Assembly (NCBI GenBank): GCA_043823085.1
Contig: JBDRBE010000001.1
Coordinates: forward strand, 47,267-111,266
From: Candidatus Levyibacteriota bacterium
Lineage (GTDB): Bacteria; Patescibacteriota; Microgenomatia; Levybacterales; UBA12049
DNA length: 64,000 bases
Direction: 5' to 3'
Numbering within the stretch: position 1 is the stretch's first letter; every line of letters begins with the position of its first letter. The position numbers and the translations under genes were made by a program. This document shows positions 4,497 through 61,402 of this stretch, piece after piece. The notes under the pieces were generated by a model. The model was not told the origin of the DNA, did no database searches, and saw nothing but the letters and a program-made list of their open reading frames with translations.

Positions 4497-5393
4497 TTAC
4501 GCATTTGAATTATTAACAATAAAATCTCCTGTCGCTTTTCCCAAACGCAATCCCTGCCTATCAACCTGCTTGTGGTCGCCAGATAATAGAGACATACGTT
4601 GAATTTTTTCTCTTATAACTAATGTTAAATTAGAGCCAAAATAAAAAGCAGTATTAAGAATTCCTACTTGTATTGGGTATTGTTTTTTTACCAGCGTAAA
4701 AATCATTCCTGCAGAGAATTGTGCCCACCAATGATATGCATCGCCCAAGGGATCCCTTACGTCGCTCATGGAAAAATCCGCGGTACTTCTAGCAATAGTC
4801 ATCATTGTAATAGGATCAGCCTCTGACTCTACCTTAAAAAGAAGTTTTTCACTTAGTCTCGTATCGCATAAACGCGCTACAGCTCGATAAGAAGCATGCG
4901 CAAGTAACGCAGCAGCAACGGGATTATTGTCTGTTTGCCTTAATGCAATATCAAATTGATCAACTACTGTTAATTGTCTTCCCATGGTTTGAGCTTGCTC
5001 TCTTACCGAATGTAAAAAATCAAAGATCTTCTCAATTGGGAAAAATTCAGATACTGTTTTTTTTCCATGATCATTTGAAAACGCAATAAGCGATGCTGTT
5101 AGTCGAGAAATCTTAATCCTCTTACTGTCCCATGGATTTATTAATAAATCGTTTACTGTATATTCTTTTTGCGAAATTACCCTAGTGATTCTCGAAAAAA
5201 GTTCATTTTTTATGACTGCCTCTTTAGGATTTTTAAAATAACAAGGCTCTTGTTTCATTTTATCTATATACACTCCAACGCCAGACGATAAATTCTCTGG
5301 TTTTGTGGCTGCTCCCAATGCTGCATCACTTAATACTTTTATATCTTCTATAAATGTTGGCAACGATCGCCCTGAATTAGCCTCTTTAGACAT
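4497..5393 (-). CDS. hypothetical protein
   Basis: 298-aa uninterrupted ORF. No motif recognised. Confidence 0.4.
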   Translation of the reverse strand: MSKEANSGRSLPTFIEDIKVLSDAALGAATKPENLSSGVGVYIDKMKQEPCYFKNPKEAVIKNELFSRITRVISQKEYTVNDLLINPWDSKRIKISRLTASLIAFSNDHGKKTVSEFFPIEKIFDFLHSVREQAQTMGRQLTVVDQFDIALRQTDNNPVAAALLAHASYRAVARLCDTRLSEKLLFKVESEADPITMMTIARSTADFSMSDVRDPLGDAYHWWAQFSAGMIFTLVKKQYPIQVGILNTAFYFGSNLTLVIREKIQRMSLLSGDHKQVDRQGLRLGKATGDFIVNNSNA

Positions 5394-8984: not shown

Positions 8985-9569
8985 TTATCTTAATCCTATT
9001 GCAGTTTGAAAAGTTTTACTTTCAGGCCCGGATTTTTTGATTGTTTTACTAGTTAAAGTAAAAGCTACTTTAATGGTGCTCTTCCCTTCTGTTTGCCCAA
9101 GTTGCATGAAGCTTAAATTTGATACACTTGTATCATTGCCATTTAATTGATCTGCTCCTAACATCAGATTACCATTGTTTAAGCTATAAACATAATCATC
9201 GCTATTTATAGTAATTGTTAAAGTTTGCGACTCGACTCCATAAGAAAGAGGAACCTTAACATCACTTGCTCTCCCAATGTCATAATTTAATCTTGAAAAA
9301 AGATATTTGCCGTCTTCCTGAACGCCGGACGTTGCTTCTGTATCAAGCTGTACATCTAAAATTGCCGTAAAAAGCTGAACCAAAACCAAAAGAAGCATCG
9401 AAAAAATACCAAGATAAATTAGAAGCTCAATAAGAGTAAACCCCGCACCTACGACTTTACGGCTCACCCCGCTGACTCGCCTCGCTTCGCGGACATTGAT
9501 TAACTCTTGTTTTAACGAACAGATATTGTGGTGCGGGGTAAATCCTTTTATTTTTTTGATTTTTAACAT
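8985..9569 (-). CDS. prepilin/pseudopilin with a 34-codon in-frame insertion in the leader (see mobile_element 9440-9539)
   Basis: ...KVVGAG|FTLIELLIYLGIFSMLLLVLVQLF is the class III signal. The leader is about 40 aa instead of the usual 6-25. Confidence 0.7.
   Translation of the reverse strand: MLKIKKIKGFTPHHNICSLKQELINVREARRVSGVSRKVVGAGFTLIELLIYLGIFSMLLLVLVQLFTAILDVQLDTEATSGVQEDGKYLFSRLNYDIGRASDVKVPLSYGVESQTLTITINSDDYVYSLNNGNLMLGADQLNGNDTSVSNLSFMQLGQTEGKSTIKVAFTLTSKTIKKSGPESKTFQTAIGLR
9440..9539. mobile_element. MITE-like insertion (about 100 bp) with perfect 10-bp terminal inverted repeats ACCCCGCACC / GGTGCGGGGT
   Basis: 9440-9449 accccgcacc is the exact reverse complement of 9530-9539 ggtgcggggt. 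The interior is GC-rich (ctcgcctcgcttcgcgg) in an AT-rich gene. Coding-strand direct repeats gGaTTTAC / gGgTTTAC flank it. Removing the 102 nt between them restores KG|FTLIELL. Confidence 0.45.
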
Positions 9570-38060: not shown

Positions 38061-38480
38061 CCTAGGAAGAAGGATCGCTACCCGCCAATATTTGCGCCAT
38101 GAGCCGTGTACGAATAGTACTGAAAAGGCGAATGGCAAAAATTAGGCGGGAGGAAAGTCCAGACAGGTGTAAAGCCCGGGACGGAGCGTAAACTCCGATT
38201 AGCAATAACTAGTGTTTTGATGCTTTACCCCGCTCAGCGGGGTGAACCCACATGTGGCATCAAAAACAAATTCTGAATTGACAGAATTTGAGAGCAACAG
38301 AGACGAGTGGGAGTGAAACGAGCAATCCTACCGGCTGCAACCTCCGAATGGTACGTCAAAACTTGCTTTACAGGAGTACCGAAGTTTGAGGGCACCGCGT
38401 CAAACGCGGCAGGGGTGACTAAATATCACAACTGAGATAGATTGCGATTAGAACAGAATCTGGCTTATTCTCTTCCTAGG
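38061..38480 (+). ncRNA. rnpB: RNase P RNA, bacterial type
   Basis: Conserved P4 5' strand GGAGGAAAGUCC at 38149-38160 and the 3' strand ACAGAAUCUGGCUUA at 38452-38466, with compensatory changes (AGUCCAGA / UCUGGCUU). GAGUGAAACGAG and GUAAACUCCG motifs are present. P1 pairs cctaggaaga (38061-70) with tcttcctagg (38471-80). A T-run follows. Confidence 0.85.
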
Positions 38481-57942: not shown

Positions 57943-58594
57943 TTATTTCTCCTCCGGTCTATTTATCCAAACTTTTACTCCAATATAGCCTTTTTTAGTT
58001 AAAGCCGGAACACTGGCAAAACTAATATGCTCGCGGATCGTTGAAAGCGGAACCTTACCGATATGTAATTTTTCCCTGCGGCTGATTTCCGCTCCGGCTA
58101 TTCTCCCCGATAGTAAAATTCTTACTCCTTTTGCTCCTGAACTCATAACCCTTTCTCCGGCCGAAAACAGTGCACGTTTATAAGGCATTCTCTTAATCAA
58201 CTGCTCGGAAATGTTCTTTGCAACCAAGTATGCGTCGAGATTTGGTTCTTTAATTGGTTCAACTTTAATATCTAGTTTTGGCAAATTCTTTGTATTTTTT
58301 TTTAGTTTTATTTAAAATAGCAACAAGGAATTTTTTTAAATCATCAAGTCCTGTTCCGCCTCTGCCAATTACGATTCCAGGCCTTGAAACATAAATTATC
58401 AATTTTAAACTATTTATTGATCTTTCAATTTCTACCCTGGCAATGCCGGCAATTCTTAATTTTTCCATTAAAGCTTTTCGAAGAGTATAATCTTCAAAAA
58501 GAACATCTTTATATCTTTTACTGTCAAACCAACGGCTTTCCCAGTTATAAATTGTTCCAAGTCTTAAAACTTGCGGATTAACTTTTTGCCCCAC
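57943..58594 (-). CDS. rpsC: 30S ribosomal protein S3, interrupted by a frameshift at an A9 homopolymer (two ORFs: 58265-58594 N-part from a GTG start, 57943-58284 C-part)
   Basis: The N-part reads [13 protein letters not shown]...GIVIGRGG (KH domain) and ends 8 codons after the A9 run at 58295-58303. The C-part ([19 protein letters not shown]...[20 protein letters not shown]...YIGVKVWI) is in the +1 frame. Deleting one A joins them into a normal S3. Confidence 0.85.
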
Positions 58595-58595
58595 A

Positions 58596-58896
58596 GAACC
58601 TCCTTCCAGCCCGCCCCGCTTCGCTTGGCGAGGCCGGGGTCGGTAATAAACCAATGCTACAAATAAACAAATAATTTAATTTGCGGACAACCCGAAGCGG
58701 GTGACGCGAGGAAGTTTGGCGCGGGGAGGCGTAAAATTTTCGCAGTTCGCATTTCGAGCTTACAACTTTTGATGGAAATTTCAAAAGACTCCAGGGTTTT
58801 ATTCTGTTTCGAATTAAATCCAAACTGTTGCGAGTTGCGGAACAAGAAAACTTTTGCGCCGACCTAAGCGCCTTCTGCAACTTTTGACAGACACAA
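58596..58896. repeat. roughly 300-nt GC-rich mosaic insert between rpsC and rplV (hairpin 58610-58643; 20-mer shared with the rplC-rplD insert at 58692-58711; transketolase-homologous block 58716-58872)
   Basis: Normally rplV and rpsC abut. The sequence cccgaagcgggtgacgcgag is identical to 61265-61284. The 58721-58759 and 58823-58872 segments match transketolase 1572-1613 and 1651-1700 at roughly 85% identity, including identical runs of 15 and 13 nt. Confidence 0.6.
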
Positions 58897-61242: not shown

Positions 61243-61402
61243 CTTGCTTCTCAAATCGCGGGGAGCCCGAAGCGGGTGACGCGAGCCAGAGACCTTGCTG
61301 GCACGCAGTCCGCCAGTTGGCGGATTAGCCGTACGAGTACCAGCGAGATGGCGAGCGGCAGGACCCGCGAGGGCGACCTTTGATTTTTGATTTTTGATTT
61401 TT
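61243..61402. repeat. 160-nt GC-rich insert (about 65% GC) between rplC and rplD, with internal palindromes
   Basis: It contains cccgaagcgggtgacgcgag (61265-61284, identical to 58692-58711), the palindrome ccgccagttggcgg, inverted ends tcgcgggg...cccgcga, and then (GATTTTT)x3. Confidence 0.6.

Follow-up and report, generated by a model that had tools for sequence, protein, structure and literature searches.

A small hairpin element inserted in frame in a prepilin leader and the mobile family to which it belongs

Introduction

Why should a prepilin gene in an AT-rich bacterial genome encode a leader of 43 residues, 34 of which are missing from its homologues? The question is raised by a gene at 8985..9569 on the minus strand of a 64,000-nucleotide stretch of contig JBDRBE010000001.1, hereafter the window, which derives from a Candidatus Levybacteria metagenome-assembled genome (MAG) of the candidate phyla radiation (CPR). 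An initial annotation had read the extra residues as an in-frame insertion resembling a miniature inverted-repeat transposable element (MITE), and the evidence reviewed here largely bears this out. Alignments and homology searches indicate that the gene is interrupted by a DNA-level insertion of a 97-nt non-coding hairpin element plus a second copy of the pentanucleotide TTTAC, and that the element belongs to a large repeated mobile family present in many uncultivated lineages; the main value of the finding is the family that the prepilin insertion reveals. The explanation favoured as a whole, that a member of this family was inserted in frame in the prepilin leader after being moved in trans, with single-strand chemistry as the likeliest route, is considered quite probable.

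The prepilin gene and its interrupted leader

The 194-aa product of the open reading frame (ORF) begins MLKIKKIKGFTPHH...RKVVGAGFTLIELL, and its N-terminal part can be written MLKIKKIKGFTPHHNICSLKQELINVREARRVSGVSRKVVGAG↓FTLIELL..., the arrow marking the processing site. An N-terminal G↓F(T/S)LxE motif followed by a hydrophobic helix identifies it as a prepilin or pseudopilin, homologues carry the Pfam domain N_methyl (PF07963), adjoining genes also have N_methyl motifs, and the gene lies in an operon of the type II secretion system (T2SS) or type IV pilus kind, with T2SSE/T2SSF synteny seen around it in the related loci L001 and L002. The prepilin peptidase recognition and N-methylation motif (GAG↓FTLIELL..., 9381..9446, minus strand) is intact, as judged from the Pfam match and from alignment with the GFTLIELL of homologues. 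In the filled gene, N_methyl scores 21.4 bits over residues 42-63, just above the cut-off of 21.2. In-silico excision of the 102 nt between the direct repeats yields MLKIKKIKG↓FTLIELL, the short-leader prepilin that the initial annotation had predicted, and the score rises to 29.8 bits (residues 5-29).

The most direct evidence for an insertion comes from the syntenic T2SSE-T2SSF-pseudopilin locus L002, which encodes the closest homologue (P0002, MISKIAKIKGFTLVELL, 67% protein identity). There the orthologous gene reads ...AAAGGATTTACTCTT... without interruption, giving a clean empty site, AAAATAAAAGGATTTACTCTTGTTGAGC, compared with which the window is exactly 102 nt longer and has TTTAC twice instead of once. 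The 34 inserted residues are missing from 19 of 19 homologues, whose leaders reach about 27 residues. On the coding strand the flanks of the element are GGATTTAC...GGGTTTAC and the junctions read AAA GGA TTT AC/CCCGCACC...GGTGCGGGG TTTAC/T CTT ATT GAG. Alignment to the empty site places the 97-nt core, CCCGCACC...GGTGCGGGG, at 9441..9537 (minus strand); together with one TTTAC it makes up the 102-nt insertion, which is in frame and free of stop codons. The upstream TTTAC (9538..9542, minus strand) is the target site, encodes the Phe-Thr of the first GFT and is the copy present in the empty site, while the downstream TTTAC (9436..9440, minus strand) may be either a duplicated target or a right-end cleavage motif owned by the element.

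The ends of the core lie in a perfect inverted repeat. The plus strand reads ACCCCGCACC at 9440-9449 and its exact reverse complement, GGTGCGGGGT, at 9530-9539; the arms are 100% complementary and 80 nt apart. On the coding strand these become a 5' terminal inverted-repeat arm ACCCCGCACC (9530..9539) and a 3' arm GGTGCGGGGT (9440..9449), both found by repeat search and near-invariant in the family alignment A3, and they pair as a 10-bp terminal stem in RNA and DNA folds (RNA fold -39.6 kcal/mol, z = -2.6). The GC content is 0.48 at the element compared with a window mean of 0.35, so that the GC-rich core and the perfect 10-bp repeats first described for this site are both upheld. Such an arrangement is rare by chance: a perfect GC-rich 10-mer with its reverse complement no more than 150 nt away was observed at 2 positions against 0.07 expected under a first-order Markov model of the 64 kb, and perfect GC-rich inverted repeats of at least 8 bp number six in the entire window. 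The family covariance model described below (R1) scores the window element at 75.8 bits over 9434-9544. Furthermore, an independent Logan assembly (SRR27458547) encodes an identical 194-aa protein.

These comparisons show that the element landed, as DNA, in the TTTAC that encodes the Phe-Thr of the prepilin G↓FT motif, splitting KIKG-FT from LIELL and re-creating GFT on the 3' side. All of the insert precedes the G↓FTLIELL cleavage site, and in the filled gene a leader of 43 residues is joined to a mature pseudopilin sequence that has not changed. The ATG of the ORF is at 9569 and the upstream gene stops 2 nt before it, so that the long form is probably translated by coupling to that gene. An in-frame GTG within the element (Val35, 9465..9467, minus strand) offers a hypothetical alternative start that would give a short MSRKVVGAG leader; as a start it is weak, because the sole Shine-Dalgarno-like GAGG sits 12 nt upstream. 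The mature protein should be unaffected whether the leader is cleaved or the internal GTG is used, and the insert would persist either through removal of the leader by prepilin peptidase or through use of the GTG as start. The original suggestion that the insertion is tolerated because it lies in the leader thus stands as to position, while the reason for tolerance is an interpretation.

A family of hairpin elements in uncultivated lineages

Species-representative genomes were scanned for both arms spaced 65-95 nt apart, which gave at least 120 loci. About 10 of the matches listed were of a high-GC, chance type; the remaining listed loci come from AT-rich or moderate-GC MAGs, often with several copies per 8 kb, and carry the labels Saccharibacteria, Paceibacterota, other CPR, Omnitrophota, Planctomycetota, 'Bdellovibrionales', Stahlbacteria, WOR-3, Nitrospirota and Ignavibacteria. 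Flank statistics were taken from 109 copies, among the matches listed, in loci of at most 58% GC. Flanking dinucleotides were identical in 66 of these 109 (about 6% expected), and T at -3 (84/109) and A at +3 (85/109) give flanks of the form TNNA, which fall by subfamily into the classes TTTA, TTGA/TCAA and TGAA/TTCA. Among the same copies the stem is usually 4-5 bp longer than the imposed 10 bp, with arms often of 14-16 bp. The family as a whole is defined by invariant ends, CCCCGCACC...GGTGCGGGG, and TTNA flanks, and its elements are about 85-135 nt long (core 97-100 nt) and without coding capacity of their own.

A second scan, aimed at the subfamily of the window element, returned 64 metagenome loci with about 40 full copies, many of them per metagenome. 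In sum, groundwater and other metagenomes yielded about 45 copies of this 100-nt subfamily, each at TTTAC. The 100-nt subfamily consensus is tttACCCCGCACCACAATGCCCCGTTCGTCAGAACGAGGGTTCATAATAAAACGCGAAGCGAAACTTCCAAATGCCCCGACCGTAAGGTCGTGGGTGCGGGGTttac. TTT was present in the left flank of every full-length copy, though the search pattern did not require it, and in a cluster of 47 copies whose interiors could be oriented, the left flank was TTTA in 46 and a C followed the right TTTA in 45. With a covariance model (R1) built from 27 copies, the first 100 genome-scan loci gave 19 matches, and the other listed genome loci together with the metagenome loci gave 58. Because so many further copies share the same ends and flanks, in genomes and metagenomes alike, the element is taken to be one member of a repeated mobile family.

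Searches of other collections returned little. Rfam 15 gave no match on the window element at gathering or E-value thresholds, nor in 19 copy-bearing loci at the gathering threshold; plasmid and phage scans gave no matches, and viral contigs only one GC-rich chance match. A literature search with the end sequences retrieved only unrelated primers and CRISPR repeats, and found no paper pairing MITEs with these phyla or describing such elements. A protein word search with the concatenated consensus peptide returned one 100-aa protein, a result that says nothing on prevalence.

Several variants stand beside the full-length elements. Minimal forms consist of two arms and a 4-5-nt loop (TTTACCCCGCACC-CATCA-GGGTGCTGGGTTTAC), as in L071 at about 5200-5236, L143 at about 1975-2006, L132, L139, L175 and L177, and some of them precede a T-run and resemble intrinsic terminators. 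At L110 (2344-2444), in a tRNA cluster of a Saccharibacteria MAG, the arms ACCCCGCACCTTG...CAAGGTGCGGGGT enclose a complete antisense tRNA gene (Rfam tRNA, 2358-2429). Constant flanks that do not follow TTNA, AAACCTT/.../GCTCAAT, occur in several CPR genomes (L120 5154-5255, L049, L043, L063, L086, L026 and L104), at sites that include the rpsK-rpsD spacer and a spot upstream of a prepilin gene; in this group the hairpin apparently forms part of a larger repeated unit or is nested within one. Finally, a subfamily of Omnitrophota type is flanked by ATGA/.../GAA (L005 368-470, L036 1583-1685, L022 881-988). An element of this type that entered at ATG-AAA would be followed by a re-created GTG-AAA, and many such copies may therefore lie exactly at gene starts.

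Copies inside genes

Most copies are intergenic, and about 10% of the 109 listed copies are inside clear genes. Seven host genes were confirmed by Pfam, encoding a Mur ligase, dCTP deaminase, MurA, homocysteine S-methyltransferase, TrmD, AbiEii and DNA polymerase III delta. Every convincing in-gene copy is free of stop codons and adds a multiple of three nucleotides (102, 105, 108, 111, 132...), and no frame-breaking copy in an otherwise intact gene was found among the copies examined. The consensus insertion lengths are themselves multiples of three, both for the standard form (100 + 2 nt) and for a longer variant (130 + 2 nt). That in-gene copies are in frame and stop-free points to insertion at the DNA level filtered by selection, and argues against splicing or ribosomal bypass.

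Pilin genes offer the element natural targets, since in the prepilin GFT motif Phe-Thr is encoded by TTTAC. Homing specific to prepilin genes was considered and rejected, as other copies are in unrelated genes and spacers. One further insertion in a GFT-like context was seen (L134), in a gene that is not a convincing pilin.

Internal hairpins, guides and the state of the window copy

Members of the subfamily share an anatomy in which the terminal stem encloses two bulged hairpins in direct orientation, H1 and H3, together with a central CGCGAAGCG mini-hairpin. The hairpins are supported by covariation in alignment A3, where 95.7% of cells are paired compared with 31-47% when the partners are slid. 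Compensatory changes occur at seven pairs of the H1/H3 stems, and double-change cells number 34 compared with 8.1 in shuffles, none of 500 shuffles reaching the observed value. Directly 5' of each hairpin foot stands AATG, or AAAG in diverged members. These tetranucleotides were read by eye, because automated calling of the hairpin foot proved unreliable where bulges break the stems.

This arrangement recalls IS608, whose transposase binds two subterminal hairpins and in which four bases 5' of the hairpin foot read each cleavage site (PMC3201880; PMC5934647). The left site of IS608, TTAC, falls outside the element, 19 nt upstream of the left hairpin, and the right site falls within it, 10 nt downstream of the right hairpin (PMC3201880); the left guide is AAAG with TTAC and the right guide GAAT with TCAA (PMC3201880; PMC5934647), and pairs A+16:T-3 and A+17:T-4 have been described (PMC5934647). 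From both IS608 ends we derived a pairing rule, G1:C2, G2:C1 and G4:C4 between guide and cleavage site, of which the G4:C4 pair is inferred. By this rule all three pairing positions of AA(T/A)G agree with TTAC, the variable third position of the guide being the unpaired one. Distances from cleavage site to hairpin are 14 nt and 8 nt in the present subfamily compared with 19 and 10 in IS608. In one lineage, L093, both guides are GAAG and both ends are TCAC, and its relative L080 has GAAA guides with TCAC in the left flank. Another copy (L007:1992-2105) keeps TTAC, AAAG and both hairpins while its terminal arms differ.

Orientation is similarly constrained. The interior has the same orientation relative to TTTAC in 46 of the 47 clustered copies; the sole exception, a 130-nt copy at L147 2110-2250, and a second 130-nt copy at L186 5256-5417 have the usual TTT...TTAY flanks and an inverted interior of the kind that recombination between the terminal arms would give.

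The window copy retains perfect arms and both TTTAC motifs, while its interior has drifted from the consensus. H1 (TCTGTTCGTTAAAACAAGAG, 9504..9523, minus strand, assigned from A3 pair counts) is AT-shifted with compensatory pairs, A3 columns 27-46 and 29-43 being U-A in the window copy and C-G in the consensus, and it is preceded by AATA where the family consensus is AATG. The central CGCGAAGCG mini-hairpin (9483..9491, minus strand) is conserved across the subfamily, with A3 columns 63-71 100% paired. In place of the canonical guide and H3 hairpin there is a variant 3' module, AGGCGAGTCAGCGGGGTGAGCCGTAAAGTCGTA (9450..9482, minus strand), which is misaligned and unpaired against the consensus H3 in A3; the right guide and H3 have been replaced by GCGAGGCGAG-TCA-GCGGGGTGAG. 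The same 3' variant is present in the copy L142, with four differences, counted by eye, over the 3' half of about 52 nt. With AATA as left guide and another module in place of the right hairpin, the window copy is probably inert and no longer mobile.

How the elements move

The mechanism to which these features point is a single-strand, 'peel-and-paste' one, in which the element would enter in one orientation 3' of TTAC and its own right end would carry the same TTAC. A Y1/HUH transposase would bind the two bulged subterminal hairpins, the AA(T/A)G 5' of each pairing with the cleavage site, and the window element would have been mobilised in trans. Mobilisation of the IS200/IS605 kind, as in palindrome-associated transposable elements (PATEs), is on our analysis somewhat better than an even prospect. 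The three flank classes of the family resemble known IS200/IS605 targets, which include TTAC, TTGAT, TTTAT and TTCAT (PMC10055086; PMC5934647). In the TTTA class, the top strand of the element is on the G-rich strand at 39 loci and on the other strand at 16. IS608 inserts into the lagging-strand template, and the strand bias of the TTTA class would fit such a preference.

A number of observations weigh against single-strand movement or against parts of the overall explanation. The strand bias is confounded with gene orientation, is reversed in the TTCA class (2 vs 12) and is missing from the TTGA class (9 vs 11). Perfect terminal inverted repeats of 10-16 bp, the most conserved part across subfamilies, are not a described feature of IS200/IS605 elements, and an obvious pair of direct hairpins is lacking in the TTGA and TGAA/TTCA subfamilies. 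Guide-target covariation comes from one clean lineage, L093, to which L080 adds a degenerate case. No Y1 transposase was found in the 1.3 Mb of fetched loci or in the window by tblastn with an IS200 TnpA query. Nor did paired ends enclose a transposase-like ORF anywhere in those 1.3 Mb; ends 0.5-3.5 kb apart proved to be neighbouring small elements flanking ordinary genes, and solo ends were short minimal forms or chance matches. The window itself holds no second full copy by blastn-short or by covariance model R1 with filters off, and cleavage of a 43-residue leader by prepilin peptidase is predicted from the sequence.

Alternative explanations

The strongest competitor concerns chemistry: the element may be a classical MITE, a deletion derivative of an insertion sequence (IS) with a DDE transposase, moved by cut-and-paste, with terminal inverted repeats of 9-10 bp (CCCCGCACC) and a target duplication of 4 or 5 bp (TTTA or TTTAC). 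Perfect terminal inverted repeats are what such an element would have, as are the identical flanking dinucleotides of 66 of the 109 listed copies; among subfamilies whose interiors are unrelated it is the arms that are best conserved, minimal forms are arms alone, and in L093 TTCA stands on both sides, as a duplication would give. The presence of TTTAC once in the empty and twice in the filled site is expected both from duplication and from an IS200/IS605 model in which the right TTAC belongs to the element. Against a classical MITE stand an asymmetric interior that is nearly fixed in orientation to an asymmetric target (46/47), a flank that is specific to the subfamily instead of variable, and direct subterminal hairpins that covary and are each accompanied by a guide-like tetranucleotide in agreement with the flank. 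The copy L007:1992-2105, furthermore, keeps hairpins, guides and TTAC but not the arms, and no IS with these ends was found in the 1.3 Mb. Movement as a DDE-type MITE with a 4-5-bp duplication is for these reasons rated a serious but clearly less likely contender than single-strand movement, and mechanisms of any other kind are rated less likely again. The label MITE given in the initial annotation holds in the sense of a small non-coding element with terminal inverted repeats but may be inexact on the chemistry, as the anatomy fits a PATE of IS200/IS605 type better than a DDE-type MITE.

Other explanations dispense with a mobile insertion, with its persistence in the message or with its neutrality. 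If the long leader were native, its 34 residues would be ancestral or functional and the inverted repeat coincidental; some homologues do have leaders of 20-27 residues, which implies that long leaders are tolerated in this protein family, but the 34 residues occur in none of the 19, the nearest syntenic orthologue has a clean empty site and the same sequence family recurs in unrelated genes and intergenic DNA, leaving this reading with almost nothing in its favour. A chimeric or mis-joined assembly, conceivable for a MAG, is just as improbable given the identical protein from an independent assembly, boundaries that fall exactly at the family ends and target motif, and a reading frame that is kept. 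Scarcely more credible is removal from the RNA as a small intron, or a translational hop of the gene 60 or 'byp' type between GGA-TTT-AC and GGG-TTT-AC. The 10-bp terminal stem would join both junctions in a stable fold, and the insert is flanked by matching codons. An insert that is open in frame, however, needs no removal, and the constraint that all convincing in-gene copies are multiples of three without stop codons would be needless if they were removed; no frame-breaking copy in an otherwise intact gene was seen, no Rfam ribozyme or intron matched, and the intron or bypass reading was rejected on the grounds that all in-gene copies are in frame and stop-free. Exaptation, in which the hairpin or extended leader now regulates pilin expression or export, is improbable though less so than the preceding three: the terminal stem has stayed perfect while the interior diverged from the consensus, and a stable structure lies 30 nt into the ORF, but the interior modules are degenerate and the insert is known from no other related pilin gene. 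Insertion of a mobile family member in the leader thus remains the preferred explanation.

GC-rich blocks elsewhere in the window

The initial annotation had linked the pilin insert to GC-rich blocks in the ribosomal-protein operon of the window, and this link holds in part. In two relatives (L2 proteins 76% identical) the L3/L4 and L22/S3 genes overlap and S3 is a single ORF of 212-215 aa. In the window, rplD (L4, 60601-61431, minus strand) contains an in-frame GC-rich block of about 147 nt (61243-61389) within a Lys-rich N-terminal extension, which folds as a long hairpin (-59 kcal/mol, z = -3.1), and the rplV-rpsC spacer (58595-58896, minus strand) extends to about 310 nt, with GC-rich blocks after TTTAC and TTAC and with the S3 Shine-Dalgarno sequence and start codon re-created after the insert (GGAAGGAGGTTCTGTG). 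The two blocks have one 20-mer in common. Window positions 58610-58639 match a 30-nt GC hairpin, CCCGCCCCGCTTCGCnnnGCGAGGCCGGGG, at every specified position, and 14 copies of the 130-nt family variant carry the same hairpin within their H1 loop, where it follows TCAG as a nested unit. The ribosomal-operon blocks are thus read, from sequence comparison, as real insertions that share a 30-nt hairpin module with family variants and not as second copies of the pilin element, of which blastn and the covariance model find none. Taken together, these comparisons indicate that small GC-rich hairpin modules move in these AT-rich genomes, as the initial annotation had surmised. The GC-rich words cited earlier as common to the pilin and ribosomal inserts divide in the same way: cgcttcgc recurs at 58617, but tcaccccgc lies, as its reverse complement, at 38237 in the RNase P RNA gene, outside the ribosomal operon.

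That gene (38066-38479, plus strand) encodes a divergent bacterial RNase P RNA, with an Rfam RF00010 score of only 24 bits (E = 0.001). Its 28-nt hairpin at 38222-38249, TTTACCCCGC-TCA-GCGGGGTGAA, is the second-best match to the element model in the window (17.8 bits, E = 0.019), and may be a minimal-form insertion in a helix tip. Two further observations concern the ribosomal operon. The rplD block is absent in the relative L189, and L188 has a different long insert there with a similar TCCGCCA..TGGYGGA hairpin. The rpsC gene (S3) is split into overlapping ORFs (58265-58654 and 57943-58284) by a frameshift at or just after the A9 run at 58295-58303, which could reflect a homopolymer assembly error, a pseudogene or programmed slippage.

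Significance and comparison with known systems

If the explanation favoured here is confirmed, the streamlined genomes of uncultivated bacteria host an active family of tiny hairpin elements that enters coding sequence in frame, a form of colonisation so far documented mainly for the Rickettsia palindromic elements (RPEs). Every prepilin gene in AT-rich genomes would be a potential landing site, TTTAC coinciding with the Phe-Thr codons of the universal prepilin motif, and in MAGs such inserts inflate and distort the calling of genes, the limits of domains and the alignment of ribosomal-protein markers. An element of 100 nt that combined terminal inverted repeats with guide and hairpin anatomy like that of IS608 would also be a compact natural system for guide-directed single-strand transposition. 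A wider proposal can be advanced tentatively, and with more doubt than confidence: that the elements bounded by ACCCCGCACC...GGTGCGGGGT form a superfamily, so far unrecognised, of hairpin transposons of about 100 nt, spread over several phyla and moved as single-stranded DNA by an HUH/Y1 enzyme, with a TTNA target read through base pairing to an internal guide. They would then be minimal, natively re-targetable relatives of IS200/IS605, routinely translated in essential proteins and nesting in each other, in CPR, Omnitrophota and Planctomycetota.

Short GC-rich hairpin inserts that spread in an AT-rich genome, sometimes nested or in genes, are familiar as the GC clusters of yeast mitochondria. 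The 30-nt GC hairpin, which occurs both in the L22-S3 spacer and inside family variants as a nested unit, is reminiscent of these, although GC clusters are organellar, eukaryotic and unrelated in sequence. The repetitive extragenic palindromic (REP) sequences and REPINs are also GC-rich hairpin repeats, whose movement in trans has been attributed to a single-copy HUH/Y1 enzyme, RAYT or TnpA-REP (PMC8266576; PMC3333891). REPs differ in being extragenic, 20-40 nt long and marked by a 5' GTAG, whereas the present elements are 100-nt composites that use a TTNA site and enter coding sequence.

Classical bacterial MITEs (Correia, ERIC, RUP, Nezha and others) resemble the family in small size, lack of coding capacity and the possession of terminal inverted repeats bordered by direct repeats, and in being multicopy in some genomes; they occasionally form in-frame fusions (PMC10969869). 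The present family is set apart from them by its fixed orientation to an asymmetric site, its covarying internal hairpins, the lack, in the 1.3 Mb of fetched loci, of a related IS encoding a DDE transposase and the occurrence of the same 10-bp ends across many phyla. PATEs, the gene-less IS200/IS605 derivatives for which IS608 provides the paradigm, likewise lack coding capacity. As with these, the present elements are inserted in a single orientation 3' of a T-rich motif of 4-5 nt (TTAC, as in IS608), and the window's subfamily has two bulged subterminal direct hairpins, each with a 5' tetranucleotide that matches the cleavage site by the IS608 rule. Unlike PATEs, the family has perfect terminal inverted repeats of 10-16 bp and left and right cleavage motifs that are the same, which mimics a target duplication; its elements are very small (100 nt), its sister subfamilies have no recognisable direct hairpins, and no TnpA, TnpB or omega-RNA partner was identified for it.

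In behaviour the nearest counterpart is found in the RPEs, palindromic repeats of about 100-150 bp that are located in frame inside protein-coding genes and translated as an extra peptide (summarised in PMC10969869). In-frame copies of the present family similarly interrupt genes for a prepilin, a Mur ligase, MurA, dCTP deaminase, TrmD and DNA polymerase III delta, to judge by the gene sequences. The hosts are CPR, Omnitrophota, Planctomycetota and others instead of Rickettsia, and, in a comparison of behaviour and not of sequence, the present family is distinguished by invariant GC-rich ends, a strict TTNA(Y) site, fixed orientation and mostly intergenic location. The family is thus RPE-like in behaviour and PATE- or MITE-like in build.

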